Shown in pieces: positions 1-16,919 of a stretch of DNA of 64,000 nucleotides (positions within the stretch are counted from its first letter, which is position 1; the number at the start of each line of letters is the position of its first letter). The notes under the pieces were generated by a model. It saw only the letters and a list, made by a program, of their open reading frames with translations, was not told the origin of the DNA and did not search any database. The DNA lies in the NCBI GenBank assembly GCA_963771175.1, contig CAVYSY010000033.1:32001-96000 (forward strand). Reading direction: 5' to 3'. The position numbers were made by a program, and so were the translations under genes. This DNA comes from an uncultured delta proteobacterium. Lineage in GTDB: Bacteria > Myxococcota > Myxococcia > Myxococcales > Myxococcaceae.

Positions 1-3000
1 ACGCCGACTCATCCCCCGACAGCGACAGCACGAAGGGCAGCGCGCGATGCACGCTCGACGTCGGAGCGGCGGCCAGCCTGTGGGCGAAGGCGGTGCCCAG
101 GAAGCGCTCCACGGTGGCGAGTGCCTCCCCGACGCCGTCCTCCCCCTCGTCCCAGCCCGCCTCGCGCACGAGCGTCTCCAGGTGCGCGCGCCGCTCGGAG
201 GCGGGGGCCTCCGCGACACGGAAGTCCACGGCCCGCAGGAGGCTCAGCACCCGACTGGCGGGGCTCGGGGCCGGTGCGCCCCAGGACTCCCGCTCGAGGT
301 ACGGCAGCGACTCGCGCGGCGGTGCTTCCCAGGGGGCGCCTTCCGCGCGAAGCCCGAGCCCGTGCACATAGCGGTAGCGACGCGGACAGGTGAGGAAGTC
401 CTGCACGGCCTCGGTGCCCACCACCGACACCTCGGGCGCGACCGGGGCCAGGGCCTCGTGGACACGCCGCACCGCGGCCTCGATGCGGGCCTCCTGCTCC
501 AACGGGTCCACGTCCTCCAGCCCGTCCGATTCCGCGGGAGGGGGCAGCGTCTCCACGTCCAGGTCCTCGACGAGCCCGCGCAGCCGCGTGTCCTCCCCCA
601 GCCGCTCGTCGAGCAGGCACCACCACGAGTCGGACGCGCCGCGCTCCTTCCCACCGGAGAGGATGAGCCTGTCCTGGGCGCGGGTGAGCGCGACGTACAG
701 CAGGCGCCGGTACTCGGCCGTCTCGCGCCGCTTCAGCTCGTCCTTCACCTCGTCGAAGCGGGGGGAGCGGTACTTGTCGAGGCTGTCCGGCAGCCACGGC
801 CGCAGGCAGAGTCCATGGGTACGCTCGAAGAGGGCCCGCCCGCTGGTGAAGCGCCTCAGGCCGCCGAGCGCCGGCACCACCACCACCGGCCACTCCAGGC
901 CCTTGGCGCGGTGGATGGTGAGGAGCTGCACCGCGCGCGGGTCTCCCGCCTCCAGCAGGTCCGCCTGGGCCTCGGTGGGGTCCTCGTTGGCCAGCCGCTG
1001 CAGCTCGCGGGCGAAGCTCACGCAACCCCCCGTGCCGCGCTCGTCGCGCCGGCCCGCCAACGCGAGCAGCTTCTCCACGTTCGCGCTCGCCTGCTCCGCG
1101 TAGGGAGTCCCCGCGAGCGCCTCGCGGTAGCCCGTCTTCTCCAGCGCCACCCCCAGCAGGGCGCGCACGCCGAGCCGATCCCGCTCGCGCCGCAACACCG
1201 GCAGTACCGCGAGGAAGCGCTCCAGCCGCACGCGCTCGCCGTCGGGCAGTCCCTCCAGGGCCGAGCTGCCCAGGCGCTCCACGGCGGGCAGGGAGAGTCC
1301 CTCGGGCCCGGCGAGCCGGAAGAGCGAGGCATCCGACAGCCCCACCAGCGGCGAGCGCAGCACCGCCGCGAAGGCGAGCGCGTCCTCGGGGTCCGCCAGC
1401 AGCGACAGCAGCGAGGCCAGGTCCAGCACCTCCTGCGCTCCGTAGAAGCCGCGCCCGCGCAGCACCCGGTGCGGAATGCCGTGGCGGATGAGGGCCTGCC
1501 GATACACCTCCAGGTGCGTGAAGGTCCGGAAGAGCATGGCCACGTCGCCACCACGCGCCGGGCGCAGCTCCTCGCTGTCCTTGCTCACGGCGATGCAGGG
1601 CTCCGCTCCCGGGGCCAGCAGCACCTTCAGCCGCTTCGCCACCGCGTCCGCGTCCGCCAGACGCAGCTCGCCCGTGGAGAGCTCCTCGTCGTCCAGTTGC
1701 AGCCGCTCCACCACCGGAGCGGGCACCGGGGCCGGACGCACTGGCTGGAGGTCATCGCCCTCGGGGTCGTAGATGACTTCGTAGGGGCGCGCTCCGCCCT
1801 CGCCCGCCACCAGCACGCCCGCGAAGGCCTGGTTGAAGAACCCGAGCAGCGGCGGCACCGAGCGCCGGTTGTGCTGGAGGAAGTCGCGTGCGCCGCCCTC
1901 GGCTTCGATCTTCTTCGCCAGCACCTCGAAGACGGACACGTCGGCGCCGCGGAACTCGTAGATGGACTGCTTGCGGTCACCCACCGCGCACAGGAAGGCG
2001 GGCTCCAGCGGGAGCGCGTCCACCAGGTTCTCGTCCGGGCGCAGCGGGCGCGGGCCGCCGTCGCGCTTCTCGGCCAGCAGCAGCACCAGCTCGAGCTGCA
2101 GGCGGTTGGTGTCCTGGAACTCGTCCACCAGCAGCACGCCCAGGCGCTCCTGCACCTGACGGCGGAAGTCGGGGATGTCCCTCAGCAGGTCGCGCGTCTT
2201 CACCAGCAGCGCGGTGAAGTCGAGCGCATTGCGCCGGACGAACTCCTGCTCGTGACGAGCCTCCACCTGTGTGAGCAGCGCGCGGAACGAGGCCTCGAAG
2301 GGCGCGGTGCGCCACCCGGCGTACGCATCCTCCAGCCGCATCACCGAGCCATCGCTCTTCCCGAAGAGGCTCCAGTACAACTCCTTCATCGAGTTGCCCG
2401 GCTCCTTCTTCAGCCGGCGCACGTCGCGGCCGTCCTCCAGGAAGGCCGCCTTGAGCGAGGGGAGCCGCTCGGGCTCGAAGCAGTTCTCCGGCGTGAGGCC
2501 CTTCAGCGCGGCCTCGAGCTCCTCGCGCAGGACGCTCCACTCTCCCTTGACGTCCAGCTCGCGCACGGTGTCGCACAGCTTCCGGCACCGCTCGACGAGC
2601 TTCTCCAGCCCGGCCCGAGCCTCCTCCACGTTCGAGATGCGGGCCTCCGCCGCGCGCAGGCCCTCCTCGCGCAGCTTGCCGTAGACGGCGACCAGCGAGG
2701 ACACCAGGCCCTCGGTGAAGTCCGAGCCGGAGAAGGTCAGCTCCTGGCACAGCTCGCGCACCCCCGCGTCACCGGCTTCGAGCGCCTCGAGCACCACGCG
2801 CTCGCACACGTCCGTCACCAGCGAGCGGGCCTCCAGCTCGTCGAGCACCTCGAAGGACGAGTCCACGCCCGAGCCCGGCGGCGCACGACGCAGCAACTGG
2901 CCGCACAGCGAGTGGAAGGTGCCCACCGAGGCCGCGCCCAGGTTCTCGCGCAGGGCGCGCCAGGTGTCCCGCGAGGGGAAGGGACGCCCCAGCCGGTCGA

Positions 3001-3271
3001 GCGAGGCCCGGAGCTCCTTCTCCTTCGTGTCCTTCAGCTCGCTCTGCACGAGCACATCCAGGCGCTCCCGGACGCGCGAGCGCATCTCCGCGGCGGCCTT
3101 GTCGGTGAACGTCACCATGCACAGCCGCGAGGGCTTCAGGGGCTCGGCGCCCTCACGAGCACCGGCCAGCAGGTGCAGCGTCATCGTCACCAGGCTGTAC
3201 GTCTTGCCCGCGCCGGCACCCGCCATGAGGGCGAGGTTCTTCTCCAGCGCCAGCAGGGAGGTGTCACTCAC
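1..3271 (-). CDS. addA: UvrD/AddA-like ATP-dependent helicase-nuclease subunit (partial, runs off left edge)
   Basis: Read manually on the - strand from GTG at 3271: SDTSLLALEKNLALMAGAGAGKTYSL (Walker A), CMVTFTDKAAAEMR, LLVDEFQDTN, VGDRKQSIYEFRGAD, LTIHRAKGLEW, LYVALTRA (SF1A motifs). Start overlaps the addB-like stop. Absent from the ORF track because there is no stop in the window. Confidence 0.88.
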   Translation of the reverse strand, partial: MSDTSLLALEKNLALMAGAGAGKTYSLVTMTLHLLAGAREGAEPLKPSRLCMVTFTDKAAAEMRSRVRERLDVLVQSELKDTKEKELRASLDRLGRPFPSRDTWRALRENLGAASVGTFHSLCGQLLRRAPPGSGVDSSFEVLDELEARSLVTDVCERVVLEALEAGDAGVRELCQELTFSGSDFTEGLVSSLVAVYGKLREEGLRAAEARISNVEEARAGLEKLVERCRKLCDTVRELDVKGEWSVLREELEAALKGLTPENCFEPERLPSLKAAFLEDGRDVRRLKKEPGNSMKELYWSLFGKSDGSVMRLEDAYAGWRTAPFEASFRALLTQVEARHEQEFVRRNALDFTALLVKTRDLLRDIPDFRRQVQERLGVLLVDEFQDTNRLQLELVLLLAEKRDGGPRPLRPDENLVDALPLEPAFLCAVGDRKQSIYEFRGADVSVFEVLAKKIEAEGGARDFLQHNRRSVPPLLGFFNQAFAGVLVAGEGGARPYEVIYDPEGDDLQPVRPAPVPAPVVERLQLDDEELSTGELRLADADAVAKRLKVLLAPGAEPCIAVSKDSEELRPARGGDVAMLFRTFTHLEVYRQALIRHGIPHRVLRGRGFYGAQEVLDLASLLSLLADPEDALAFAAVLRSPLVGLSDASLFRLAGPEGLSLPAVERLGSSALEGLPDGERVRLERFLAVLPVLRRERDRLGVRALLGVALEKTGYREALAGTPYAEQASANVEKLLALAGRRDERGTGGCVSFARELQRLANEDPTEAQADLLEAGDPRAVQLLTIHRAKGLEWPVVVVPALGGLRRFTSGRALFERTHGLCLRPWLPDSLDKYRSPRFDEVKDELKRRETAEYRRLLYVALTRAQDRLILSGGKERGASDSWWCLLDERLGEDTRLRGLVEDLDVETLPPPAESDGLEDVDPLEQEARIEAAVRRVHEALAPVAPEVSVVGTEAVQDFLTCPRRYRYVHGLGLRAEGAPWEAPPRESLPYLERESWGAPAPSPASRVLSLLRAVDFRVAEAPASERRAHLETLVREAGWDEGEDGVGEALATVERFLGTAFAHRLAAAPTSSVHRALPFVLSLSGDESA

Positions 3272-6200
3272 GGGCACCCTCCTCCTCCACGAGCCGCCGC
3301 TCGGTGATGCGGCACACCGCGCGGTAGCCACAGCTCCCGCAGTCCTTCGGCCTCACGGCGAACTCCCCCGCCCTCACGGTCCGCACCAGCGCCTCCACCG
3401 CGTTGGCCAGGTTCGGCTTCGCCTCCGCCGCCAGCTTCGCCCGCACCTCCGGCTCCGTGGACAGCAACTCCTCCAGCTCGACCGCGTCCTTCTCCAGCAC
3501 CTCCGACAGGTGGATGACCTCGCCCGTCCGCAGCGAGAACCACGCGGCCTGCCGTGTGTCTCGGTGCCCACTGGCCCGAGCAGCGTACAGGTACAGCGGG
3601 AGCTGGAAGTCCGAGTCGAGCAGCTTCTTCTTCAGCTCCGACCTGGAGAGCTTGCCGGACTTGTAGTCGATGACGCCCACCTGTCCTCCGCCCATGTCGA
3701 GCCGGTCGATGGTGCCCTCGAAGTGGATGACGTCCTCGCCCACCGTCAGCGTCACCTCGTTCCAGCCCTCGGCCGGGTTGCGCGGACCGAAGCGCAGCTC
3801 GAAGTCCGAGGGGGTGAAGCGCTCGAAGGGCAGGCCCCGCCGCTCGTCCATGAGGATGCGACGCACCATGTTCTTCGCCCGCTCGCGCGCCAGGCGCCAC
3901 AGCGCCGGGTGGCCCACGTAGTGGCGCTGCTCGAAGTGCGCCCGCACCTCGTCGAGCACCGTGTCCAGGAACGGCTCCGGTATCTCGTCGAGGCCCAGGC
4001 CCAGCAGGTTGCGCTCCTTGAGCCGCTTGAAGAACTCCTCCAGCACCCGGTGCCAGAAGATGCCCTGCCCCCTGCGGTCGAACTCCTCTCCCGGCTGCTC
4101 CGGCTCGGGCACCTTCAGCCCGTAGGACAAGAACCCCTGGAAGCCGCAGTTGCCGAAGCGCGCGAGCGCCGAGGCGGACAGCGGACGAGTGGCGTCGAAG
4201 CGGAAGGCCTCCCGGAGCGCCTCGCCCAGGGATGGATCGTCCACCACGCCGGTGTAGCGGCCCGCGCGCGTCCCCGAGTCTCCGAAGAAGTGCAGCCGCT
4301 CGATCTCCACCTGCACCATCTCCCGCGCGGCGGCGAGCCACGGCGCGTCCTCGAAGCGGCGCTTGAGCAGATTCCGGGCCGGGTCCGGCTCGGAGACGCG
4401 CAGCTTCTCCATCGCGAGCGACTCCAGCACCACGCGCTGGCGCAATTCCGACTCCGTGAGCACCTCGTCGAGCGGCGCGATGGCCGGCAACGAGCGCGTC
4501 GTCCACGTCTCTCCCGTCAGCCGCCGGATCTCCTCCAGGAAGGTGGAGGGCGCCTGCTCCTGCCCGCCCGGCCCCTCCACCGAGAAGGACAGGCTCACCG
4601 TCTGCTCGGCGGTGGCCAGGAGGCTGGCGAACAGGAGCCGATCCTCGGTGAGACGCCACTGCGCGCGGTCCTCGAACTCGCCACCGGTGAGACGGAAGAC
4701 GTCCCGGCTCAGGTGCTTGTTGAGCGAGCGCCGCTCGGAATCGCCCAGCAGCGGGTTGGGCTCGTCGCGGCCCGGGAAGCGGCCCTCGGCCAGGCCCCCG
4801 AGGAAGACGTGCCCGAAGGTGCGCCCCTCCAGCTCGCGGACGTCCAGCACCTCCACGGCGCCCACCGAGGGCCCGCGCGGAGGCAGGTGAACGTCACGCA
4901 TCACGTCCTGCAACCAGCGACCGAAGGTGCGCCGCCGCAACCGGGGCCCACCGCCCACCGCCGCGAGCGTCCGCTCCAGCTCACGCACCCGCATCGCGAG
5001 CGCCGCCCGCGCGGCATCGTCCCGGGCCCGGGCCTCCAGAGAGAGCGCGCCCAGCCCCTCGTCCGCGGGCGTATCCATCGCGCCCTCCGAGTCCAACAAC
5101 CCAAGCCGCCGCACCACCTTCCACCACGCGGCGAGCAGCTCCGAGGCACGCCCCTGCTCCGGAATGCGGCGGCAGGACTCCAGCAGGAAGAGGCACCGCT
5201 CGCGCAGCACCCGGGCCTCGTGGGCGCGCCGCTGTTCCCTCGGGCGCACCTGCTCCGGCAGCGGCTCCAGCCGCCTGGCCAGCGCCTCCAGGCGGAGGTC
5301 ATAGGCCCCCTTCCCGCGCGTCGCGCCCAGCCGGTCGTCCCGGACGGCCGCGAGCGTGAGGAGCGTGGCAGGAGCCTCGGGGGCGCCCCGGGAGAGCGCG
5401 GGCGCGTAGCGACTGGAGACCAGCTCCGCCACGCGCTCGGCGGGGAAACCGTCCTCCACGAGCAGGGGCAGCTCCAACGCGAGGCGCACCGGGCCCGCCA
5501 GCGCGAGCGGCTCGCCCCAGGGCAGGCGCACGGGGACACCGAGCTCCGCGAACGCATCCGCCACCCAGCGGACCTCGGGTCCCAGGTCGCGCCAGGCCAC
5601 CGCGATGCTCCCGGGCGGAACTCCGTCCGACACCAGCCGGCGCACGTCCCGGGCGATGAGGCGGGCCTCGTCCCGGGCCGCTCCGGCGCTCCACATCCGG
5701 AGGCCCTCCACCGCGCCCTGGAGCACGTCCTTCTGAGCGCGGGGCGAGAAGAGGTGACGGCCGAGCTCCAGCATGGGGCGCGACTCGAAGGTGACGTCGG
5801 CCTTGAAGAGGTCCACGTGGGGGAGGGCCTCGCCCCGGTTCTCGAAGGCACGGAAGAGGGCCGCCAGGGCCGCGTCCGCCACTGGCGAGCCACCCACCGG
5901 AGTCTCCACGCGCAGGGTCACCTTCCGCGCGTCGCAGGCGGCGGCCAGGGCCAGCAGCAGCTCCAGCCCCGAGGGCCGGACGTCATAGACGCCGTGCAGC
6001 ACGAGGGTGCCCACGTCGTCCCAGGCCGTGGGCCAGGCGTTGCGCTCCAGGGCCTCGCGCGCCCCGCGCACTACGTCCTCGCGGTCCGCGAGACCCAGCT
6101 CGGCCATCTTCTGCTCGTACGCGTGGTGCAGGAGGGCGAGCATCCGGACGCGGTTGCGCCGCTCGGGAGGGAGCACCTCCAGGGCATCCTGCAGCTCGCG

Positions 6201-6515
6201 CGGGGAGAGCCGACCGGCCTTGAGATCCAACAGCACGTCCAGGGCGGCGCGGGCGAAGGCGGGCTCGTGGACGAAGTCACCGAAGGGCGTGTCGCCCAGG
6301 CCCTGGGCGAGCGAGGCCACCACGGTGCGCGCGACGAGGGGCGAGCACGGGCGCCGACCCAGCTCACGCGCTCCGCCGAGGGCCTCCAGGAAGCCCTCCC
6401 AGGTGAAGAAGGAGTCCCCCCGGACGAGCCCGGCCGAACTCCGGACGGCACGTAGGGCGGCCTGACGGCGACCGTTGTCGGGGAAGACCTGGAGGGTTCG
6501 ACGTGCGTCGGACAT
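3264..6515 (-). CDS. addB: AddB/RexB-like subunit: degenerate helicase fold plus C-terminal PD-(D/E)xK nuclease with Fe-S cysteines
   Basis: LSASALARFGNCGFQGF, GTIDRLD...VIDYKSG, QLPLYL and C-terminal CGSCGYRAVC (four-Cys staple); directly upstream of and overlapping the addA-like gene. Confidence 0.85.
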   Translation of the reverse strand: MSDARRTLQVFPDNGRRQAALRAVRSSAGLVRGDSFFTWEGFLEALGGARELGRRPCSPLVARTVVASLAQGLGDTPFGDFVHEPAFARAALDVLLDLKAGRLSPRELQDALEVLPPERRNRVRMLALLHHAYEQKMAELGLADREDVVRGAREALERNAWPTAWDDVGTLVLHGVYDVRPSGLELLLALAAACDARKVTLRVETPVGGSPVADAALAALFRAFENRGEALPHVDLFKADVTFESRPMLELGRHLFSPRAQKDVLQGAVEGLRMWSAGAARDEARLIARDVRRLVSDGVPPGSIAVAWRDLGPEVRWVADAFAELGVPVRLPWGEPLALAGPVRLALELPLLVEDGFPAERVAELVSSRYAPALSRGAPEAPATLLTLAAVRDDRLGATRGKGAYDLRLEALARRLEPLPEQVRPREQRRAHEARVLRERCLFLLESCRRIPEQGRASELLAAWWKVVRRLGLLDSEGAMDTPADEGLGALSLEARARDDAARAALAMRVRELERTLAAVGGGPRLRRRTFGRWLQDVMRDVHLPPRGPSVGAVEVLDVRELEGRTFGHVFLGGLAEGRFPGRDEPNPLLGDSERRSLNKHLSRDVFRLTGGEFEDRAQWRLTEDRLLFASLLATAEQTVSLSFSVEGPGGQEQAPSTFLEEIRRLTGETWTTRSLPAIAPLDEVLTESELRQRVVLESLAMEKLRVSEPDPARNLLKRRFEDAPWLAAAREMVQVEIERLHFFGDSGTRAGRYTGVVDDPSLGEALREAFRFDATRPLSASALARFGNCGFQGFLSYGLKVPEPEQPGEEFDRRGQGIFWHRVLEEFFKRLKERNLLGLGLDEIPEPFLDTVLDEVRAHFEQRHYVGHPALWRLARERAKNMVRRILMDERRGLPFERFTPSDFELRFGPRNPAEGWNEVTLTVGEDVIHFEGTIDRLDMGGGQVGVIDYKSGKLSRSELKKKLLDSDFQLPLYLYAARASGHRDTRQAAWFSLRTGEVIHLSEVLEKDAVELEELLSTEPEVRAKLAAEAKPNLANAVEALVRTVRAGEFAVRPKDCGSCGYRAVCRITERRLVEEEGARE

Positions 6516-6555: not shown

Positions 6556-7467
6556 ATGCTCGAAGCCATGCCCTCCGCTCTCTGTTTTCTTGCGCTCGCC
6601 TCCCTGGTCGCCGTCTCCCCCGCCTCCGCCGAGTCCCTCCCGTCTGCCCAGCAGGCCTCCGACGCCCCCACCCTCCACGAGCTCAGGTTCGACTGGGGGC
6701 GGGATGCGGCCATCACGGGCGTCGCCGGGCTCCTGTGGATTGGCAGCGAGACCCTCTTCAAGGAGGAGCTCGCTCCCGATACGTGCAAGTGGTGCGATCG
6801 CTCGGCCGACGGCACGGACACCCTCAACCAGGTGGACCGGTGGGGCCGAGGCATCGCGGCGGAGACGGCCGAGGGTCGCAAGCAGTGGGACACCTGGAGC
6901 AACGTCGTGGACTTCGGCGTGCTGCCGGTGGGCGTGCTCGGGACGCAGTACCTGCTGGGCCGGGGCAGCGGGGCGTCGCCGCGCTACTTCGCGCAGGACG
7001 CCACGATGATCATCGAGTCGGTGGTGGTGTCCGCGGTGGCGAACCAGGCGGTGAAGTTCGCCGTGGGTCGCGAGCGCCCCTTCGTCCACGTGCTGCCCGA
7101 GGACCAGAAGGCGCTCACCGAGCACCCCAACGACAACAACCTGTCCTTCTACAGCGGGCACACCAGCATGGCGTTCGCGCTCGTCACGGCGGCGGGCACG
7201 GTGTCCGAGCTGCGCGGGTACAAGAACCGCTGGGTCATCTGGGCGGTGGGCCTGCCGGCGGCGGCCTCGGTGGGACTGCTGCGCATGGGCGCGGACAAGC
7301 ACTACTTCACGGACGTGCTGACGGGCGCGGTGGCGGGTTCCCTCTTCGGCGTGGGCGTACCCCTGCTGCTGCACGGGCGCCAGCAGGAGACCCAGGAGCA
7401 GAACGCGGGCGTGTCCATGCAGGTGTCGGGCAACCTCGGCGGCGTGATGGTGTCCGGGCGGTTCTGA
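6556..7467 (+). CDS. PAP2-family phosphatase with signal peptide
   Basis: KFAVGRERP, SFYSGHT and RMGADKHYFTDV match the PAP2 C1-C3 motifs; hydrophobic N-terminus. Confidence 0.85.
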   Translation: MLEAMPSALCFLALASLVAVSPASAESLPSAQQASDAPTLHELRFDWGRDAAITGVAGLLWIGSETLFKEELAPDTCKWCDRSADGTDTLNQVDRWGRGIAAETAEGRKQWDTWSNVVDFGVLPVGVLGTQYLLGRGSGASPRYFAQDATMIIESVVVSAVANQAVKFAVGRERPFVHVLPEDQKALTEHPNDNNLSFYSGHTSMAFALVTAAGTVSELRGYKNRWVIWAVGLPAAASVGLLRMGADKHYFTDVLTGAVAGSLFGVGVPLLLHGRQQETQEQNAGVSMQVSGNLGGVMVSGRF

Positions 7468-7557: not shown

Positions 7558-8034
7558 ATGCACATTCGGCCATCATTCACGGCACGTGTAGTCCTGCTGT
7601 TGCTGGCGGTCCTCAGCGCCGCCCAGCTCGCGTGCGTCGGCGGTCACATCCCGCCGTCGATGTTCGAGTTCGAGAACGTCGTGCCCTATACCGGTCCGAA
7701 GGAAGGGGGCTGGAAGGTCGCCCAAGTGCTCGTCCTGCTGAGCAAGATCTCCCCCATGTTCTCTTCAACCGCCACCTGCGACATCGAGGTGGGCGTTCCG
7801 GAAAGGAATGTGAAAGGGTGGGTTCTGGATGAAGTCGCGCAGGTGGAGGCAGCCAAGGCAGCGGACAAGGCCGCACGCATTGTCCTGCGGGAGCAACAGC
7901 CGACCGCCCTGGCCTGTATCAAATTCAGGGAACACATGCAGAGCATCCTGACGGATCCGGTGTCCGGCCCCATCCCTGGCGCCAAGGTCACCAGATTCCA
8001 GGAGGTGGGCGTCCCCAGGAAGACGTTTCCGTGA
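7558..8034 (+). CDS. Hypothetical lipoprotein (possible toxin of a toxin/immunity pair)
   Basis: VVLLLLAVLSAAQLAC lipoprotein signal; visibly more AT-rich codons than neighbours; followed by a co-oriented cytoplasmic ORF. Confidence 0.6.
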   Translation: MHIRPSFTARVVLLLLAVLSAAQLACVGGHIPPSMFEFENVVPYTGPKEGGWKVAQVLVLLSKISPMFSSTATCDIEVGVPERNVKGWVLDEVAQVEAAKAADKAARIVLREQQPTALACIKFREHMQSILTDPVSGPIPGAKVTRFQEVGVPRKTFP

Positions 8035-8111: not shown

Positions 8112-8699
8112 ATGAATCCGGAACTGACGGCCGACGCGCTCGTTCAACTCGTCCACCGCTACTACCCGGCGGGCCTCCTCAACATTGATCCTCGATACGA
8201 TGCATCAGAGGAGGGCCAGCGCCTCACCGCGCTGGTCAATGCCAACGCGGACCCTTCGCCAGCCTGGAAGAGCTTCATCCAGCGGCTCCACGAGGAGTTC
8301 CCAGATTGCTCCGTCTGGGACACGACCATCCCCCACCATGACCCCTGTTACTATTGCCGCGTCTCCCTCCCGGGATTCGTGACAGGAGACCCCCGCTATG
8401 ACTGCATCGTCTGCCTGCTGAGCCAACTCGCTCCGGTCTACGCCCTCTACGCGTCTCACATGGAGGAGAAGGGCCCCGGCCTCCCCCGGGACTACTGGCT
8501 CCGCTTTCCGCCATTTCCCCCCGAGTTCCAGGCGCAGGAGGCGAAGCTCGCCGAGTTCATCGAGTCCTCCTTCGGATTCACCCGACTGTCCAACGATGTC
8601 CTCTTCACCCCCGTGCCGGACCTCGTCCCGCGCACGGCCAACCACGGGCTTGGCAAGGCGCAGCTCATCGACTGCCTCTTCACCGAGCACCGCTGGTGA
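8112..8699 (+). CDS. Hypothetical protein (possible immunity protein)
   Basis: 195-aa ORF, GAGG upstream, no signal peptide; pairs with the upstream lipoprotein. Confidence 0.6.
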   Translation: MNPELTADALVQLVHRYYPAGLLNIDPRYDASEEGQRLTALVNANADPSPAWKSFIQRLHEEFPDCSVWDTTIPHHDPCYYCRVSLPGFVTGDPRYDCIVCLLSQLAPVYALYASHMEEKGPGLPRDYWLRFPPFPPEFQAQEAKLAEFIESSFGFTRLSNDVLFTPVPDLVPRTANHGLGKAQLIDCLFTEHRW

Positions 8700-8705
8700 G
8701 GCGCC

Positions 8706-9614
8706 TCAGCAGCCCGCCTCCACGGGTCCAGGCTCCGGCAACCGCGGCAGCGAGCCCAGGCCCCACGGCTGCCCGGCCCGCCACGACACCTCGCCCGAGA
8801 TGCCCCACCCGGCGCACACCACCTCGCGGCCCCGGAACTCCATCCAGAACACCGACTCGTCGGGCCTCGCCGCCTGATCCAGGCACACCACGCGCGTGGG
8901 GTGCCTCCCACCATGGCCCCCGAGCGACACCGCGAAGGCCCGGTGCGAGTGCCCGCACAGCACCCACTTCGGGTGCGTCGTCTCCACCAGCCGCCGGGTG
9001 ATGGGGTTGCCAATCCAGTACGACGGCAACGTGCGGCCCGGCGGCGGCTCCCCCTGCTCCCGGACCCGCTGCGGCAGGCCCCTCGGCCACTCGTGCACCA
9101 ACATCAGGTCCACGTCCCGTAGCGCCGACACCTTCTCCACCTCGGGCGCGCGGAAGTAGCCGGCCTGCTTCGCCGTGTCGAGCGAGCGCGGCCGCTTCAA
9201 GGGCTGCTCGTAGAAGCGCGGCGCGTGGATGCCCGACAGGTACCCCACCCGCAGCCCGTGCAGCACCTTCAGGCCCGCGCGCCCCAGGTAGTGCACGTTC
9301 GGCGCGAGCAGCAGACCCTCCGGCGAGTCGTGCAGCGCCTCGAAGTCCTCGTTGTTGCCGGCGATGAAGTACAGCGGCCGCTTCATCGTCCGCACGCCAT
9401 CCGCGTACTCGGCGAACTCGGCGGGCATGGCGCGCTTGGCCGTCTTGCGCCGGTGGTCGTCCGCGTGCCGGAAGGCCTCCACGTCCCCTACCGCCAGCAC
9501 CAGGTCCACCGGACGGCCCCGCGCCTCCGCCAACGCGTCGAGCCATGACTCCACGCGGTGGAAGCGACCGTGGATATCTCCCACACCGGCGACCAGGAGA
9601 GAATCCGGAGCCAT
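8706..9614 (-). CDS. Calcineurin-like metallophosphoesterase, Dbr1 (lariat debranching enzyme)-like
   Basis: GDIHG, AVGDVEAFR, FIAGNNE, APNVHYLGRAG, LSGI, LVHEWPRG, GNP, PKWVLCGHSH and TRVVCLDQ in Dbr1 order; ATG at 9614 (alternative GTG at 9626). Metallophosphoesterase call is firm; the Dbr1 subfamily call rests on a recalled sequence. Confidence 0.8.
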   Translation of the reverse strand: MAPDSLLVAGVGDIHGRFHRVESWLDALAEARGRPVDLVLAVGDVEAFRHADDHRRKTAKRAMPAEFAEYADGVRTMKRPLYFIAGNNEDFEALHDSPEGLLLAPNVHYLGRAGLKVLHGLRVGYLSGIHAPRFYEQPLKRPRSLDTAKQAGYFRAPEVEKVSALRDVDLMLVHEWPRGLPQRVREQGEPPPGRTLPSYWIGNPITRRLVETTHPKWVLCGHSHRAFAVSLGGHGGRHPTRVVCLDQAARPDESVFWMEFRGREVVCAGWGISGEVSWRAGQPWGLGSLPRLPEPGPVEAGC

Positions 9615-9676: not shown

Positions 9677-9714
9677 AAAAATGAAAAGGGGCGCCCCACG
9701 CGGGAGCGCCCCCT
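9677..9714 (-). terminator. Probable intrinsic terminator of the ASH/vWA lipoprotein gene
   Basis: GC-rich inverted repeat aggggcgcccc-acgc-gggagcgccccct followed on the - strand by TTTTCATTTTT. Confidence 0.55.
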
Positions 9715-9736
9715 CTGGCCCGTGGGCTCCCCGGCC

Positions 9737-12697
9737 CTAGCAGCCCACCGGGTAGGTGATCTCCACGGTGGCCCCGGGAGCGGGCGCCGCGTTGAGGTCG
9801 AAGATGACGCTGTTGGTGCCCGCGTCATACGTCCACCCGGTCGTCACCTGCACCCCATCCACCTTCACCACGATGCGCGAGGGGTCCGAGGGCTTCTCGC
9901 TGAGCGTGAAGGTGCGGTTGGGACCGAAGGCGCTCTCCGAGAGCTTCTCCAGCGAGCCGGCCCAGTTGGGCGTGCAGATGCTCTCCACCACGCCGCCAGT
10001 GGCCTGGGCGAGCTGGATGTAGCGGTTGCCAGAGCTGCTGGCCTTGGGGCAGGTGGCCAGATCGCTCGGCCCGGCGATGGCGGAGAAGATGACCTTCGAG
10101 GCGTCTCCCCCCTTCAGCCCCAGGAGGAACGTCTCATAGAAGGACACCGGCTGCGGAGAGAAGTCCTCCTCGTCGGTGATGGCGATGATGGCCAGCTTGG
10201 CATCGTTGCGCAGGAAGTTGGCGTTGCCGTCATTGGTCAGCGGGGTGCGCGGGTCGTCCAGGTTGAAGACGAGCGGATCCGACAGGCTGCGGTACATGGC
10301 CTCCAGGCCCTGCTCGTTCCAGTGGCACACGCCCACCTGCGTGTTGTGCGCGAAGACGGACTCGGCCGCCGGCGTGGTGGGGGTGATGACGCGCGGCGAG
10401 GAGCCATCCACGGGGAAGAAGCGCCCGTTCTCACCGCCCTCGGCTCCACCCGGGCACACCGCCCAGCCGCCCGAGGAGCGCTCGAGGCCGGTGGTGGTGA
10501 CGGCGATGTGGTAGTCCACGCCCGCGGCGGCCGCGTGGATGAGGAAGGCCGAGAAGTTCTGACCCAGGTTCTGCTGCTCGTCCATCATCGAGCCCGAGTT
10601 GTCCACCACGAACAGCACGTCCACCCTGGCCTCGGACTGCTGGATGAACTCGTCGGTCTGGTCCGTCTTCAGCACGCCCTTGCCCACCAGGCCCACCGTG
10701 TAGGGCGAGCCCGTGCCCAGATCGAACCGGAGCGCGGCCACGTCATCCCCATCGCTCTGCGGCTCGTACGTCACCTTCATGAGCGTCTCGCTGTTGGCGG
10801 CGAGCACCGCCGGGAAGAGCAGGCCGTGCGTCAGCTTGAAGTCGCTCGCGTCGCCCTCGAGGTTCATCCCCACCAACGTCGTGGGCCCGGGGCACTTGTT
10901 GTAGACGACCAGCCCGCGCTCCTTCGGGCCGCAGGTGAGCCGATTGACGCCGAAGTCCAGGGTGGTGGGTTGCACGGAGAAGCAGCCCTGCACGCCCTGA
11001 CCGTGCAGAGGAATCAGCACGTGGCCGTTGGACGGGTGGTTGACCCAGCCCTCCGCCATGCCGGAGAACCCGCCCGCCTCGCCCGGCTTGAAGCGCACGA
11101 GCAGCAGGGCCCGCTGGCCCGGCGCGAGCACGGTGTTCCCCGTCTTGTCCGCACTGAAGGACGCATCCGAGCCCTCGGCGAGCTGCATCCCCGCCAGGTA
11201 GCACTCGGTGGCGCCGATGTTGCGAATCGCCGCGCTGAGCGTCACCTCGGAGCCCACCGGCACGCTGCCGAAGTCCACCGAGGCCGGCTCGGCCTTGTAC
11301 TGGCAGGGCGAGAACACCTTGCCCGCGCCCATCACCTTCACCACCTCGGTGGACGTGCTGCGCCCGTCGAGCACCTTGACGGAGAGCTCCGCCTCGCCCG
11401 CCCCGAGGCCGGCGCGCGGCATGAAGGTGATGGGCACCGCGATGGACTGGCCCGCGGCGACGGGCATGCTGGAGGGCGCCTGCGCCAGGAGGAAGTAGCC
11501 GCCCTTCTTCGTGGAGAGCTTCACGTCGCTCACCAGCACGTCGTTGCGGCAGCGGTTCACGATCTGCACGTCCCGGGTGGCGTTCATGCCCTCGGCCACC
11601 TCGCCGAAGTCGAGCGGATCCGGCTGCAACACCACGCACGAGGCACCACCCTCACCTGTCAGCGTCACCTTGGGCCCGGGTTTCGTGGTGCCCACGGGCC
11701 GCACGTCGATCTCCAGCCGAGCGGCGCGCACGGGGCCGCTGGCGGTGGGCGAGAAGGCCACGCGGATCTCGACCACGGCGCCCGCGGCGAGCACGTTGCC
11801 CACGAGCGTGGGCTCGCTCACCACGCGGAAGGCGCCGCTCGCGTTGTCCAGCAGCTTCACGCCGCCGTACGCCATGTGCTCGGTGCCCAGGTTGCGCACG
11901 GTGATGCGCTCCTCGGCGGTGGCGCGCAGCTGCACCCGGCCGAAGTCCACCCGCAGGGGCGTCACCTCGAGCTGCGTGGCAATGCCCGTGCCGGCGAGCT
12001 GCACCACGGTGGGCTCGCACGTGGAGCACACCGACACGCGCGCGATGGCCTGGGCGGCGCCCAGCCGCTCCGGCGTGAAGGACAGCGACACCCGGCGCTC
12101 CTCGCCCGGCGCCAGCGTGAAAGGCACCCCGGCCTCGCTGGAGCCGAACTCGTCCGCGTCCGCCCCGTCCAGGTCCACGCGCACCGGGCTGTCCACCTGC
12201 GAGGGATTGCGCACCACCAGCTCGCGCAGCTCTACGTTGCCCAGCTCCACGTTGCCGAAGTCGATCGCGGGCGTCTTCACCTCCACCCACGCCTTCACGC
12301 CCTGCCCGTCCACGCCGAGCCGCGCCACGCCCTCCTTCACGTTGTCGGCGTCGGTGAGCACCTCCAGCATCCCCTGCACCGCGCCCTCCACGTCCGGCGT
12401 GAAGCGCACCTCCAGCTCCCGCTCGCCGCCCGCCTTCAGCACGAAGGCCTCGAAGGGCAGCACCTCCACGTTGGGCAGGCTGGCCGTCGCCCCCTGCACG
12501 GTGAAGGGAGCTCGGCCCCGGTTGGACAGCCGCACCTTCATCGTCTTGGTGACACCCACCGCCGAGAGGCCGAACTCCAGCTTCTCCGGGAACGCGCCCA
12601 GCCCCGTCTGGGCCGGTCGCGACGACCGCGGATCGCAGCCCGCCCCGAACAGGGCCAACACGCACGCTGCCACGCACACCCAGCGCAATCCGACCAT
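9737..12697 (-). CDS. Large lipoprotein: six Ig-like choice-of-anchor D/ASH-type repeats plus C-terminal vWA domain
   Basis: Lipobox LFGAGC after ATG 12697; six ~100-aa repeats starting P-x-x-(L/I/V)-(D/E)-F-G; vWA MIDAS DVLFVVDNSGSM and ITDEED. Confidence 0.8.
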   Translation of the reverse strand: MVGLRWVCVAACVLALFGAGCDPRSSRPAQTGLGAFPEKLEFGLSAVGVTKTMKVRLSNRGRAPFTVQGATASLPNVEVLPFEAFVLKAGGERELEVRFTPDVEGAVQGMLEVLTDADNVKEGVARLGVDGQGVKAWVEVKTPAIDFGNVELGNVELRELVVRNPSQVDSPVRVDLDGADADEFGSSEAGVPFTLAPGEERRVSLSFTPERLGAAQAIARVSVCSTCEPTVVQLAGTGIATQLEVTPLRVDFGRVQLRATAEERITVRNLGTEHMAYGGVKLLDNASGAFRVVSEPTLVGNVLAAGAVVEIRVAFSPTASGPVRAARLEIDVRPVGTTKPGPKVTLTGEGGASCVVLQPDPLDFGEVAEGMNATRDVQIVNRCRNDVLVSDVKLSTKKGGYFLLAQAPSSMPVAAGQSIAVPITFMPRAGLGAGEAELSVKVLDGRSTSTEVVKVMGAGKVFSPCQYKAEPASVDFGSVPVGSEVTLSAAIRNIGATECYLAGMQLAEGSDASFSADKTGNTVLAPGQRALLLVRFKPGEAGGFSGMAEGWVNHPSNGHVLIPLHGQGVQGCFSVQPTTLDFGVNRLTCGPKERGLVVYNKCPGPTTLVGMNLEGDASDFKLTHGLLFPAVLAANSETLMKVTYEPQSDGDDVAALRFDLGTGSPYTVGLVGKGVLKTDQTDEFIQQSEARVDVLFVVDNSGSMMDEQQNLGQNFSAFLIHAAAAGVDYHIAVTTTGLERSSGGWAVCPGGAEGGENGRFFPVDGSSPRVITPTTPAAESVFAHNTQVGVCHWNEQGLEAMYRSLSDPLVFNLDDPRTPLTNDGNANFLRNDAKLAIIAITDEEDFSPQPVSFYETFLLGLKGGDASKVIFSAIAGPSDLATCPKASSSGNRYIQLAQATGGVVESICTPNWAGSLEKLSESAFGPNRTFTLSEKPSDPSRIVVKVDGVQVTTGWTYDAGTNSVIFDLNAAPAPGATVEITYPVGC

Positions 12698-12964
12698 TGC
12701 AGCCTCCACCAGACCGGCGCCCGCACGGCTCGCGCGCTCACCAGCCATACCTGGGGTGAGGGTCTCTGCAACCTCGGGGCCGAGGAGAAAGGACTGCCCA
12801 CTGACGCGACAAGTCGCGGGACTCTTGGGAAAACTCTTGGACTCGCGGGAGACGCAACCTGCCCCGCGGTCCCCCTCTTCTGAAAAGACTTCCGGAGTGC
12901 CCGACAGGCGACGGGTAAAAACCGGAACCCCCCGGGAGAAGAAAGGGAACCACGAACTCCCGGT

Positions 12965-13864
12965 TCAGGGCGAAGGTCGGGAAGCCAGGATGAGCAGGCG
13001 AGGAGCCAGGCCCGTGCCCCACAGCACGCCGCCCATGCAGATCAACGCACCCACCAGCGCGAGCGGCTGGAGGGGTTCGCCCAGCAGCAGCGCGCCGAGC
13101 ATCCACGAGAAGGCGGGGGTGAGCTGGGTGGTGATGCCGCCCACGGCCGTCGACGTCACGTGGGCCATGCCGTAGGTGAAGATCATCTGCGCGACCGCCG
13201 AGGACAGGCCCACACCGAGCAGCGGCAGCAGCAGGTCCCCACTCAGGGGCCGCCAGTCCTGGAGGGCGAAGGGCAGGCCGAACAGCAGCCCGAAGAGGCA
13301 GAAGGACAGGAAGATGGAGGAGGCGTCGGTGTCGTGACGCAGGGCGCGCAGGGCGATGACGGCCGCACCGCTGAAGACGGCGGACAGCGCCCCGGCCCCC
13401 GCGCCCACGCCCAGGGTGAAGCCCATCCCCCCCTGGACCGTGCTCCAGATGACGAGCCCCGCGCCCACCGTGGTAGCCGCCAGCCCCGTGGCCAGATAGC
13501 CGTTCACCCGCTCGCCCAGGATGAAGAGGCCCAGGATGGCCGCGCAGATGGGCCAGCAGGAGTTGAGCAGCGTGGCGGGCCCCACCGCCAGCTGGTCGAT
13601 GGCCACGAAATACAAGTAGACGGAGGCGCCTCCGAAGATGCCGCGCAGGGCCCACAGCCCGGGCCGCCCCATGCGCGGCCGCGTCCCGGTGAGCGGGTAG
13701 TACAGCGCCAGGAAGGCGAGGCCGATGACGAAGCGCGCGCACACCACCTGTCCCACCGACAGCCGGCCCGACACCGAGCGCGCGCAGAAGGCCATCACGG
13801 CGAACAGGAAGCTGGAGATGACGAGCAGCGGAGAGCCGCGCAGGCGCTCGGGGATGGGGGGCAT
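12965..13864 (-). CDS. DMT/EamA-family transporter
   Basis: ~10 TM helices in two repeats; QVVCARF, LRGIFG, LFILGERV, LLGEPL. Confidence 0.85.
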   Translation of the reverse strand: MPPIPERLRGSPLLVISSFLFAVMAFCARSVSGRLSVGQVVCARFVIGLAFLALYYPLTGTRPRMGRPGLWALRGIFGGASVYLYFVAIDQLAVGPATLLNSCWPICAAILGLFILGERVNGYLATGLAATTVGAGLVIWSTVQGGMGFTLGVGAGAGALSAVFSGAAVIALRALRHDTDASSIFLSFCLFGLLFGLPFALQDWRPLSGDLLLPLLGVGLSSAVAQMIFTYGMAHVTSTAVGGITTQLTPAFSWMLGALLLGEPLQPLALVGALICMGGVLWGTGLAPRLLILASRPSP

Positions 13865-14039: not shown

Positions 14040-16919
14040 ATGTCCGAGCCCGACGTCATCTCCATCCGAGGAGCCAAGGAGCACAACCTCAAGAACATCT
14101 CCCTGGAGATTCCGAAGAAGAAGCTGGTGGTGTTCACCGGCGTCTCCGGCTCGGGGAAGAGTTCCTTGGCGTTCGACACCCTCTACGCCGAGGGCCAACG
14201 CCGCTACGTGGAGAGCCTCTCGGCCTATGCCCGGCAGTTCCTCGGGCAGATGGAGAAGCCCAAGTACGACACGATCCGCGGCCTATCGCCCACCATCTCC
14301 ATCGAGCAGAAGGCGGCCAGCAACAACCCGCGCTCGACGGTGGGCACCGTCACCGAGGTGCACGACTACCTGCGCGTGCTCTACGCCTCCGTCGGCGTGC
14401 AGCACTGCCCCAACTGCGGCAAGGTGGGCAAGCAGAGCGCCCAGCAGATCGTCGACACGCTGATGGACTCGCCCACCGGCACCAAGCTTCAGGTGCTCGC
14501 GCCCGTCGTCACCAACCGCAAGGGCGAGCACAAGGACATCCTCACCGAGGCGCAGAAGCGCGGGTTCTCGCGCGCGCGCATCGACGGCAAGGTGAAGAGC
14601 CTGGAGGAGCGCATCGAGCTGGACAAGAAGTGCAAGCACGACATCGCGCTCATCATCGACCGGCTGGTGCTCAAGCCGGAGGTGAAGCAGCGGCTGACGG
14701 ACTCGGTGGAGACGGCCCTGCGCGAGGGCAAGGGCATGCTCATCATCACCGACGAGACGGGCAGCCTCGCGAGCGACCGCATCATGAGCGAGCTCAACGC
14801 CTGCCACGCGTGCGGCCTGTCCTTCGGCGAGCTCAGCCCGTCCTCGTTCTCCTTCAACAACCCGCTGGGCATGTGCTCGGACTGCAACGGCCTGGGCACG
14901 AAGGCGGAGATGGACCCGGACCGGATCGTCCCGGACCCCTCTCGCAGCCTGCGCGACGGCGCGGTCGAGCCGTGGGCCAGCGGCATGAACAAGGGCGAGG
15001 GCTGGACGGCGGACTTCGTGGAGAGCCTCGCCGAGGCCTTCGACATCGACCTGGACGCGCCGTACGCGAAGCTGCCGGCCAAGGCGAAGAAGCTCCTCAT
15101 GAACGGCGCCGAGGGCAAGCGCTTCACCGTCAAGTGGGGCGAGGGCGGCCGCTACGAGATGGAGTGGGAGGGGCTCGTCAACAAGCTGATGCGCAGCTTC
15201 AAGACGACCACGTCCGAGGCGATGCGCACCTACTACCAGAAGTTCTTCAGCGACAAGCCGTGCCCCACCTGCGACGGGGCGCGCCTGAAGCCGGAGAGCC
15301 GGGCGGTGAAGGTGCACGGGCGCTCCATCGTGGACCTGAGCGGGCAGACCATCGGCGACGCGCTGCGCTGGCTGAAGGGGCTGGAGCTGACGCAGACGGA
15401 GCGGAAGATCGCCACCGAGCTGCTCAAGGAGATCCGCAGCCGCCTGGGCTTCCTGGAGGACGTGGGCCTCGCGTACCTGACGCTGGACCGCACCGCGTCC
15501 ACGCTCTCCGGTGGCGAGAGCCAGCGCATCCGGCTGGCCTCGCAGATGGGCAGCGAGCTGACGGGCGTCATCTACATCCTCGACGAGCCCTCCATCGGCC
15601 TGCACCAGCGCGACAACGGCAAGCTGCTGGCCACGCTCAAGCGGCTGCGCGACCTGGGCAACTCCGTCGTCGTGGTGGAGCACGACGAGGAGACGATGGA
15701 GGAGGCGGACTGGCTCGTGGACTTCGGGCCGGGCGCGGGCGAGCTGGGCGGCGAGGTGGTGGCCGAGGGCACTCCGGCGCAGGTGATGGACAACGAGAAG
15801 AGCTCCACCGGCGCGTACCTCTCCGGCCGCAAGGAGATCGAGGTCCCCGATCAGCGACGCGAGCCCGGCAAGACGAAGGTGCGAATCGAGGGCGCGAAGG
15901 AGAACAACCTCAAGGACGTGACGGTGGACATTCCGCTCGGGATGTTCGTGGCCGTGACCGGCGTGTCCGGCGCGGGCAAGTCCACGCTCATCAACGAGAT
16001 CCTCTACCCCGCCGCCGCGCGAGCGCTGTACGAGAGCCGCGAGGTGCCGGGCAAGCACAAGGCGATTACGGGGCTGGAGCACCTGGACAAGGTCATCGAC
16101 ATCGACCAGCGGCCCATCGGACGCACGCCGCGGAGCAACCCGGCCACGTACACGAAGGTGTTCGACGCCATCCGCGAGGTGTTCGCGATGACGCCGGAGG
16201 CGCGGGCGTTCGGGTACACGGCGGGACGCTTCTCCTTCAACATCAAGGGCGGGCGCTGCGAGGCGTGCGAGGGCGACGGCGTGAAGCTGGTGGAGATGCA
16301 CTTCCTGGCGGACGTGTACGTGCCGTGCGAGGTGTGCAACGGCAAGCGCTTCAACGAGGCCACGCTGCGGGTGCTCTACAAGGGGAAGAACATCGCCGAG
16401 GTGCTCGAGATGAGCGTGCGCGAGGCGATGCAGCACTTCAGCGCGCACAAGGACATCATGCGCGTGCTCCAGACGCTGGAGGACGTGGGCCTGGGCTACA
16501 TCCGGCTGGGGCAGAGCTCCCCCACCCTGTCCGGCGGCGAGGCCCAGCGCATCAAGCTGGCGCGCGAGCTGGCGCGCGTGGCCACGGGCCGCACGCTCTA
16601 CATCCTCGACGAGCCCACCACGGGCCTGCACTTCGAGGACATCCGCAAGCTGCTGCACGTGCTCAACCGGCTGGTGGAGGCGGGCAACACGGTGCTGGTC
16701 ATCGAGCACAACCTGGACGTCATCAAGAGCGCGGACTGGGTGATCGACCTGGGACCCGAGGGCGGCGCGGGCGGCGGGCAGTTGCTGGCCACGGGCACGC
16801 CCGAGCAGGTGGCCGAGGTGAAGGAGAGCCACACCGGGCGCTACCTCAAGCACGTGCTGACGAAGTCGCGGAAGCACCGCGTGGGCCGCAGGCCCGACAC
16901 GGCGGCTCCCGCGGCCTGA
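14040..16919 (+). CDS. uvrA: Excinuclease ABC subunit A
   Basis: [71 protein letters not shown], Zn-finger CxxC pairs. Confidence 0.98.
16663..16860 (+). repeat. Copy 1 of a 198-bp direct repeat (3' part of uvrA)
   Basis: Aligns without gaps to 19229-19426 with 6 mismatches by eye. Confidence 0.92.

Follow-up and report, generated by a model that had tools for sequence, protein, structure and literature searches.

The gene at 8706..9614 of a stretch of DNA from an uncultured member of the Myxococcaceae (assembly GCA_963771175.1, contig CAVYSY010000033.1; the whole 64-kb stretch analysed here is referred to as the window) encodes a phosphoesterase that is a genuine member of the Dbr1/CWF19 branch of the metallophosphoesterase superfamily, the branch of the RNA lariat debranching enzyme, and that is not itself a Dbr1. 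Its metal site is kept, and the His that serves Dbr1 as general acid is replaced by Asn throughout the orthologue group. With moderate confidence, we read the protein as a re-tooled cytoplasmic metalloenzyme of the Dbr1 clade, with a housekeeping role that would be independent of retrons and group II introns.

The open reading frame (ORF) starts with ATG at 9614, ends with TGA at 8706-8708 and spans 302 codons. The ORF is real: its GC content at the three codon positions (0.72/0.51/0.93) follows the pattern typical of genes in DNA of ~70% GC, and the orthologues share the same start Met. A signal peptide is absent, and the first strand of the fold follows the N-terminus directly. One copy of the gene is present in its own genome (9.8 Mb, 58 contigs, 82% complete). 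The Pfam model PF00149 (Metallophos) matches the protein above its gathering score (E 3.5e-14, 54.1 bits, cut-off 21.5), and a Pfam scan at E ≤ 1 returned Metallophos families only, with neither PF05011 (the DBR1 C-terminal domain) nor CwfJ domains found. No family of NCBIfam or PADLOC matched, and the ESM Atlas gave only generic 'metallophosphoesterase' clusters.

Kinship to Dbr1 and the altered active site

The first-pass annotation of this gene, made from the letters and translations, had described the protein as following eukaryotic Dbr1 block by block, beyond generic metallophosphoesterase motifs. The blocks that it quoted (PVDLVLAVGDVEAFR, FAEYADG, FIAGNNE, LAPNVHYLGRAG...GLRVGYLSGI, VDLMLVHEWPRG, IGNP...PKWVLCGHSH and TRVVCLD) are all found in the translation. 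The human DBR1 strings set beside them were compared here with eukaryote-type Dbr1 representatives; each of five representatives carries at least 6 of the 8 short motifs.

Four rankings, by phmmer, a family profile, Foldseek and VIA-align, all place Dbr1 first. At E ≤ 10, phmmer matched 6 distinct sequences among all PDB chains, namely 5 Entamoeba Dbr1 (best E 1.7e-18, query residues 8-229) and human CWF19L1 (1.2e-6), with no other metallophosphoesterase at that threshold. A 76-sequence family profile scored Dbr1 at 6e-64 and CWF19L1 at 3e-22 and 4e-20, followed by purple acid phosphatase at 2e-3, so that Dbr1 stands above generic metallophosphoesterases. The AlphaFold2 model of the phosphoesterase is confident (mean pLDDT 95.2, pTM 0.93), and a Foldseek search with it placed Dbr1 chains at ranks 1-9 (E 2e-20, TMq 0.74) and CWF19L1 at ranks 10-11; after a gap came LpxH, purple acid phosphatases, Mre11 and Rv0805 (E ≥ 6e-8, TMq ≤ 0.5). 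VIA-align superposed residues 4-266 of the model on residues 5-267 of the Dbr1 chain (Z 29.4, 252 residues aligned, root-mean-square deviation 2.8), ahead of CWF19L1 (Z 24.1 and 22.3) and of the next chain, aq_1956 (Z 18.5). The suggested comparison of a structure model with Entamoeba Dbr1 thus returned a clear fold match, and an equivalent of the lariat-recognition loop is present. Grouping with Icc/CpdA or other generic phosphoesterases, the outcome that would have spoken against the Dbr1 resemblance, was not seen; the protein groups with Dbr1 and CWF19L1, and the observation of Dbr1-likeness therefore stands.

Dbr1 itself (Entamoeba histolytica, 4PEF and 5K77; yeast) is the best match in both sequence and fold, and the SGI, HxWP, G(N/S)P and GH.H blocks are common to both proteins, whereas Dbr1 is ~350-600 aa long against the 302 aa of the phosphoesterase. 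CWF19L1/Drn1, a cofactor of spliceosome disassembly and of debranching, comes second among solved structures through its N-terminal Dbr1-like domain. This homologue of Dbr1 is reported to modulate rather than perform debranching (PMC4105757), and differs from the phosphoesterase in its C-terminal CwfJ domains.

In Entamoeba Dbr1, as described in PMC4176325, Cys14 stands in place of the usual Asp, the beta metal is held by Asp45, Asn90, His180 and His230, His91 is the proton donor to the leaving 2'-O, and the branch adenine is sandwiched by His16 and Tyr64. According to the same account, the lariat-recognition loop comprises residues 130-158 and is centred on the invariant Arg158, the C-terminal domain comprises residues 262-354, and function in vivo is lost on deleting the loop or the C-terminal domain, or with C14A/S. 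We mapped these positions onto the phosphoesterase through a HMMER alignment, in which C14, H16, D45, Y64, N90, H91, R158, H180 and H230/H232 of Entamoeba Dbr1 fall on D13, H15, D44, R61, N87, N88, R155, H174 and H222/H224, and loop 130-158 falls on residues 127-155 without a gap. Residue columns were then tabulated over 20 orthologues, 68 short bacterial relatives and 21 eukaryote-type Dbr1, the last picked by their GC.HG motif (PF05011 was found in 18/68 of the wider set scanned).

The seven metal ligands D13, H15, D44, N87, H174, H222 and H224 are each present in 20/20 orthologues and are invariant in all three groups, apart from the Cys/Asp exchange that separates Dbr1 from the phosphoesterase: the eukaryote-type Dbr1 have Cys at position 13 (21/21), where the orthologues (20/20) and the bacterial short forms (68/68) have Asp. 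The 29-residue loop equivalent is also retained and ends in the same Arg (R158/R155). This Arg is found in 20/20 orthologues and 21/21 eukaryote-type Dbr1, but in only 4/68 bacterial short forms. Within the loop, the RNA-contacting residues I132, K134, F136, F155 and H156 of Dbr1 are partly matched, by I129, A131, R133, G152 and Y153.

Elsewhere the active site departs from Dbr1. The general-acid His of the GNH[DE] motif, usual in the PF00149 superfamily, is absent from the phosphoesterase (GNNE); every orthologue has Asn at position 88 (20/20), and every bacterial short form (68/68) and eukaryote-type Dbr1 (21/21) has His. At position 61, where Dbr1 has its adenine-stacking Tyr, the orthologues have Arg (20/20) and the bacterial short forms Tyr (67/68); the residue is Tyr, Phe or His in 17, 3 and 1 of the 21 eukaryote-type Dbr1. 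The loop ahead of it reads DDHRRKAAKR in orthologues, with RRK..KR invariant, and DL.SM..P.KYR in the other groups, which means that the pocket has gained R56, K57 and R61. The protein ends 36 residues past the core, and the Dbr1 C-terminal domain is absent. Both differences that the first-pass annotation had named, Asp13 for the Dbr1 Cys and Asn88 for the His of GNHE, are therefore correct. Of the 7 defining features of Dbr1 that could be compared, 4 fail in the phosphoesterase (the Cys, the general-acid His, Tyr64 and the C-terminal domain), for which reason we conclude that it is not a Dbr1. His54 was considered as a relocated general acid and rejected; such a role is unlikely because the residue is His in just 16/20 orthologues.

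The consequences of losing this His have been reported for yeast Dbr1: introns accumulate in H86A, H86N and H86Q as they do in dbr1-delta, and in vitro the H86A enzyme has a gross debranching defect (PMC5113202). According to the same study, 20-42% of the activity on bis-p-nitrophenylphosphate (bis-pNPP), whose leaving group requires no protonation, is left in H86A, H86N and H86Q (42% in H86N), and Mn-dependent binding of branched RNA persists in Dbr1-H86A (Kd 53 nM); at the motif I Cys, C11A/S/H are non-functional and C11D retains 7% activity (PMC5113202). Similarly, the H113N variant of the Pseudomonas putida metallophosphoesterase (MPE) is inert on DNA and active on bis-pNPP (PMC7826289). 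Taken with these reports, the residue columns show that the orthologue group has fixed the change that abolishes debranching in yeast and has lost the stacking Tyr, while its metal site has stayed under strong constraint.

A natural enzyme without this His exists in LpxH (UDP-2,3-diacylglucosamine pyrophosphatase), a pyrophosphate-cutting metallophosphoesterase in which, as reported in PMC5016852, Arg replaces the equivalent His in all known sequences and holds the leaving (beta-)phosphate. LpxH is thus a His-less enzyme acting on a phosphoanhydride, but it lies outside the Dbr1 clade, has another insertion domain and a lipid substrate, and is a distant fold match to the phosphoesterase (Foldseek E 6e-8, TMq 0.38). 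The LpxH model TIGR01854 was not found in the searched genome of the window, and the precedent is taken from PMC5016852.

Distribution, reverse transcriptases and bacterial relatives

A protein search at E ≤ 1e-3 gave 314 proteins, of which the best 120 were considered for identity and names. Among these, orthologue matches are 56-90% identical to the phosphoesterase, the closest proteins among the matches listed being from Archangium (84-90%) and other named sources among them being Cystobacter, Hyalangium, Stigmatella, Corallococcus, Myxococcus and Aggregicoccus. The orthologue group also occurs in uncultured small-genome genera of the Myxococcaceae. Orthologues are named 'metallophosphoesterase' or 'serine/threonine protein phosphatase', and by JGI 'predicted phosphodiesterase', 'Icc-related' or 'lariat debranching enzyme'; the last label, on some members, shows that automatic annotation already picks up the resemblance to Dbr1. 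Of 401 sampled genomes of the phylum, 124 gave a match at E ≤ 1e-5; for those from Myxococcaceae the figure was 114/171. The gene was missing from all sampled genomes of some genera, among them g21 (0/12) and g22 (0/17).

Yeast Dbr1 debranches multicopy single-stranded DNA (msDNA) in vitro, and the classic myxobacterial retrons are of type XIII. The genome of the window encodes three retron reverse transcriptases (RTs; PADLOC RT_XIII, E 1e-115 to 7e-189), on contigs C54, C30 and C58, and a group II intron on contig C11, where Rfam matches to D1-D4 and to domain V/VI flank a 248-aa, possibly truncated RT ORF. All four RT genes thus lie on contigs other than that of the phosphoesterase gene, and the 64-kb window contains no RT, msr/msd or intron RNA by ORF annotation and by Rfam, which gave no matches.

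We then compared the two distributions by searching the same 401 genomes with the RT_XIII model at E ≤ 1e-40, a threshold that matched 138 genomes and also caught RTs in two control genomes. The gene was present in every sampled genome, and RT_XIII in none, in genera g6 (7/7 and 0/7), g7 (9/9 and 0/9), g8, g9 and g26 (1/1 and 0/1 each) and g17 (2/2 and 0/2; this genus includes G196, an unpublished genome used for presence or absence only), with g15 close to this pattern (7/7 and 1/7). The reverse was seen in g21 (gene 0/12, RT_XIII 8/12), g22 (0/17 and 12/17), g28 (0/2 and 1/2) and in g16, g18, g20 and g23, each represented by one genome with RT_XIII and without the gene (0/1 and 1/1). By these genus tallies, at least 27 sampled genomes carry the orthologue with no retron RT_XIII match, and at least 25 Myxococcaceae genomes carry an RT_XIII match with no orthologue. 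Outside the Myxococcaceae, RT_XIII was found in 11/20 genomes of family f14 and 9/11 of f25, where the gene query was weak at most (1/20 and 0/11). A search with the broader RVT_1 model of five orthologue-bearing genomes, 97-99% complete, gave a match in 0/5. Kinship among the genomes confounds any statistic on co-occurrence of gene and RT; the counter-example genomes nevertheless mean that the conserved function of the gene cannot require msDNA or RT-encoding introns. The co-occurrence with retrons that the first-pass annotation had looked to is accordingly contradicted, the two distributions being discordant in both directions across genera.

A library-wide HMMER search returned 1214 representatives at E ≤ 1e-3, of three kinds: orthologue-like GDIHG...GNNE proteins; many GDVHG...GNHE proteins of 250-290 aa in which PF05011 is absent; and eukaryote-type GC.HG...GNHE proteins with PF05011. 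The short bacterial GNHE forms (~250-290 aa), 26-37% identical to the phosphoesterase, resemble it in having one domain, Asp in motif I and a recognition-type loop and in lacking the C-terminal domain, but unlike it they retain the His (68/68) and the Tyr (67/68) and have R155 in just 4/68. Some Myxococcaceae carry such a form in addition to the GNNE orthologue, and some of the short forms are likewise named 'lariat debranching enzyme' automatically by JGI.

The loci of this family were scanned in one genome per species with a 10-sequence alignment as query, and the best 80 of 167 confirmed stretches were considered. Within Myxococcota it occurs in Myxococcus, Corallococcus, Pyxidicoccus, Archangium lansingense, Sorangium and Polyangium among others, and outside the phylum in Cyanobacteria, Acidobacteriota, Abditibacteriota, Planctomycetota, Pseudomonadota, Bacteroidota and Geobacteraceae. 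At E ≤ 1e-30 it was found in 1/201 sampled cyanobacterial genomes, this one being the search centre, and in 0/200 others. The family is thus sporadic and patchy across phyla.

Phylogenetic trees recovered the orthologues as a monophyletic clade (SH-aLRT 99-100) with a long stem (1.1-1.2 substitutions per site). The clade falls neither among the myxobacterial GNHE paralogues nor within the other short forms, and it does not lie clearly outside the GNHE family either; eukaryote-type Dbr1 are also monophyletic (100). When the latter are included the orthologue clade joins them with a support of 53 and a long-branch warning, and when they are left out it is placed at the midpoint, with a stem of 1.1 substitutions. 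Given this support and the warning, we do not claim a sister relation of the orthologue clade to eukaryotic Dbr1.

Several features of the GNHE family were noted in passing. Duplicates of its genes, in tandem or close by, are frequent within single loci (L035, L038, L087, L095, L082, L097). In 4 related filamentous cyanobacteria (Trichodesmium, Dapis and relatives; L043, L053, L061, L066) the GNHE gene is directly followed by uvrC on the same strand, and in 6 Myxococcus/Pyxidicoccus loci by a DEAD-box helicase gene. Ser/Thr kinase genes recur in 17/80 loci, which we take as chance in kinase-rich genomes. No conserved partner emerged across the neighbourhoods of the 80 loci, and since these patterns all come from close relatives we give them little weight. 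The GNHE proteins and neighbours of L038 (labelled Comamonas sp. KCTC 72670) and L035 ('Proteobacteria bacterium') cluster with the Myxococcus-group paralogue (SH-aLRT 99), and these records may be mislabelled or contaminated myxobacterial assemblies. Some Dbr1-like domains also occur in fusions, with an extended N-terminus, a methyltransferase domain or a KH RNA-binding domain (P0156, 757 aa; P0136, 510 aa; P0271, 785 aa); for some members of the family, the KH fusion hints at RNA as the substrate.

Genomic neighbourhood

The features of the gene and its surroundings are collected in Table 1. The AddA-like and AddB-like genes overlap by ~70 nt and together (2-6515) look like an end-resection pair of AddAB/AdnAB type, conserved beside the phosphoesterase gene across Myxococcaceae. 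Repeat families of the ASH/HYDIN/Cep192/TMEM131 kind, to which the upstream neighbour belongs, have been described mostly from eukaryotic cilia and centrosome proteins. An operon of the phosphoesterase gene with this neighbour was considered and rejected, a terminator-like hairpin lying between the two. With this hairpin upstream and a convergent ORF downstream, the gene looks monocistronic, and the arrangement suggests a separate transcription unit.

Table 1 Features of the phosphoesterase gene and its neighbours in the window.
Feature	Position	Strand	Remarks
AddA-like UvrD/REP helicase	2-3331	-	1110 aa; runs off window start
AddB-like PD-(D/E)XK protein	3264-6515	-	1083 aa
PAP2 protein	6556-7467	+	
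ORF	7558-8034	+	hypothetical
ORF	8112-8699	+	hypothetical; convergent to phosphoesterase gene
Dbr1-clade binuclear metallophosphoesterase CDS	8706..9614	-	302 aa; Myxococcaceae 'GNNE' orthologue group
Short clade-specific C-terminal tail (AGWG.SG..W..G..W), residues 267-302	8709..8816	-	replaces ~90-aa Dbr1 C-terminal domain; no PF05011
Motifs IV and V, H174 (VHEWP) and H222-S-H224 (GHSH)	8943..9095	-	remaining metal ligands
Equivalent of Dbr1 lariat-recognition loop, residues 127-155	9150..9236	-	gapless to Entamoeba 130-158; ends in R155
Motif III, G86-N87-N88-E89	9348..9359	-	N87 metal ligand; N88 for general-acid His (Dbr1 His91/His86)
Basic loop H54-RRKTAKR-A62	9429..9455	-	R61 at site of adenine-stacking Tyr64; R56, K57 replace T/S, M
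Motif I, D13-I-H15 (GDIHG)	9570..9578	-	Asp at site of eukaryotic Dbr1 Cys
Terminator-like hairpin and T-run, then TTGACA	9684..9716	-	just past stop of upstream ASH/Ig-repeat gene; 1 site, shuffles average 0.5
ASH/HYDIN/Cep192/TMEM131-like Ig (PapD-like) repeat protein	9737-12748	-	1003 aa
EamA transporter	12965-13864	-	
uvrA	14040-16919	+	959 aa; divergent from EamA/ASH/phosphoesterase side
DUF1963-family protein	17123-18001	+	E 1.5e-9; downstream of uvrA

Gene order was compared over 17 orthologue contexts of ~17 kb from different genera, comprising the window and 16 loci, a set that also served for the residue counts; 3 of 19 fetched contexts (L126, L128, L130) were dropped as the orthologue ORF was not called, and L134 is a paralogue. 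In these contexts uvrA lies on the upstream side of the orthologue in 13/17, addB lies downstream on the same strand in 10/17, and the ASH gene lies upstream in 11/17. Small genomes have the orthologue directly beside divergent uvrA and 0-1 genes from addB, and in many genomes variable genes are inserted between the orthologue and addB. This conserved synteny, within one family and without an operon, is suggestive of DNA metabolism.

Possible functions of the protein

The phosphoesterase is unlikely to be a 2'-5' debranching enzyme and probably has another job, as it is without the residue needed for debranching and occurs in genomes without an RT. Under the reading that we favour, a re-tooled metal-dependent hydrolase with a housekeeping role, the protein would still bind two metals and a phosphate-bearing ligand, but would not expel a ribose 2'-O (or 3'-O) leaving group in the way that Dbr1 does. 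The exchange of His for Asn and of Tyr for Arg, together with the added Arg and Lys of the pocket loop, would then represent re-tooling for a new substrate, whose leaving group, if LpxH and the bis-pNPP data are a guide, would be good, negatively charged and in no need of protonation. By analogy with LpxH, in which Arg at the site of the same His holds the leaving beta-phosphate, we tentatively propose that the bond cut may be of phosphoanhydride type, in a nucleotide or at a nucleic-acid end; this more specific idea is possible, and we hold it with limited confidence.

Several observations weigh against this picture. Asn88 could equally mean a non-catalytic binder, given that Dbr1-H86A binds branched RNA. 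The retention of R155 and of the whole recognition-type loop suggests that the protein still grips a nucleic-acid strand, with which a substrate consisting only of a nucleotide fits less well. Branched nucleic acids are available in the organism, whose genome carries three retron-type RTs and a group II intron, and the conserved place near uvrA and addAB could point to DNA repair instead.

The main rival, which we regard as unlikely, is that the protein is a pseudoenzyme, a metal-dependent nucleic-acid binder that grips a phosphate or backbone feature and does not cut, as a natural counterpart of the Dbr1-H86A trap or of CWF19L1/Drn1. Asn88 in 20/20 orthologues would fit this well, the H86A protein being dead on branched RNA and yet able to bind it when Mn2+ is present (PMC5113202), as would the conserved recognition-type loop with R155, the invariant basic loop RRK..KR and the rank of CWF19L1 as second closest solved structure. 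Set against this, the seven metal ligands are invariant down to orthologues of ~50% identity, for which catalysis is the simplest explanation, although binding by Dbr1 also needs metal; His-less metallophosphoesterases can be true enzymes, as reported for LpxH (PMC5016852); and the loss of the adenine-stacking Tyr means that a Dbr1-like branch pocket is not preserved.

A role as a DNA-repair nuclease or end-processing enzyme, working with AddAB and/or UvrABC in the manner of Mre11/SbcD and P. putida MPE, is a lesser rival and improbable. It draws on the conserved gene position with respect to uvrA and addB (13/17 and 10/17 contexts), which is tightest in the small genomes, on the basic pocket loop and on the uvrC gene that follows the sister-family gene in 4 cyanobacterial loci. 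Mre11/SbcD and P. putida MPE share with it the fold of the superfamily (Z about 14) and neighbouring DNA-repair genes (PMC7826289), but their similarity to the phosphoesterase is far below that of Dbr1 and they rely on the very His that it is missing, the equivalent His-to-Asn change leaving MPE inert on DNA (PMC7826289). Moreover, there is no co-transcription with addAB in the window, where a convergent gene lies between and a terminator-like hairpin upstream; variable genes separate the orthologue from addB in many genomes; and the synteny, seen in relatives within a single family, may be inherited gene order.

The function proposed in the first-pass annotation, debranching of retron msDNA or group II lariats, or breakdown of 2'-5' signalling nucleotides, by a bacterial 2'-5' phosphodiesterase, is very improbable. 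The kinship specific to Dbr1, the recognition-type loop with R155, the retron RT_XIII genes and intron of the same genome and the presence of both gene and RT_XIII in many Myxococcaceae genera speak for it, but the general acid is absent in 20/20 orthologues and its loss in H86N, H86A and H86Q phenocopies dbr1-delta in yeast (PMC5113202). Three further features that Dbr1 needs or that are specific to it are missing as well, namely the Tyr (Arg in 20/20), the Cys (here Asp) and the C-terminal domain. No RT, msr or intron lies near the gene and the genome's RTs are on other contigs, PADLOC gave no match, and the gene and the RTs occur without each other, in at least 27 genomes with the gene and no retron-type RT (0/5 with RVT_1 where searched) and in at least 25 RT-bearing genomes of the family without the gene. 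The weaker alternative offered in the same annotation, a protein that binds branches, is a possible reading.

A broader evolutionary idea, to which we assign low probability as a whole, would make the short bacterial Dbr1-like proteins the prokaryotic stock of eukaryotic Dbr1/CWF19. Their His/Tyr members would be true bacterial 2'-5' debranching enzymes, and the Myxococcaceae clade would be an 'H86N-type' derivative that binds, and does not cut, a nucleic-acid junction of branched or other unusual form (as a sensor or protector, for example of msDNA in genomes with retrons) or a phosphoanhydride hydrolase acting on nucleic-acid ends.

In PMC4176325 and PMC12238851, Dbr1 is described as the sole enzyme opening 2'-5' lariat branches and its recognition loop as unique. 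A full-text literature search, whose scope left subscription journals and supplements outside, turned up, going by titles and abstracts, no work on a bacterial homologue of Dbr1. The only mention of Myxococcus in PMC4105757 is among its references, and the main text of a 2025 DBR1 review contains neither 'bacteria' nor 'prokaryot' (PMC12238851). For retron Ec78, natural 'debranching' is reported as loss of the first four DNA nucleotides, with no Dbr1-like enzyme named in the available part of the source (PMC12819146), and in a study of the DRT2 defence system yeast DBR1 was used only as a reagent (PMC12039810).

Our results show that bacteria carry proteins related specifically to Dbr1, recognition-type loop included, and that one bacterial family has fixed the exact substitution that abolishes debranching in yeast while keeping its metal site, with a distribution not tied to retrons. 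An attractive but probably wrong candidate for an 'msDNA debranching enzyme' is set aside in this way, and the family offers a clean natural experiment on the re-tooling of the Dbr1 active site. A prokaryotic debranching activity, and the origin of Dbr1, are better sought among the canonical His/Tyr bacterial relatives.

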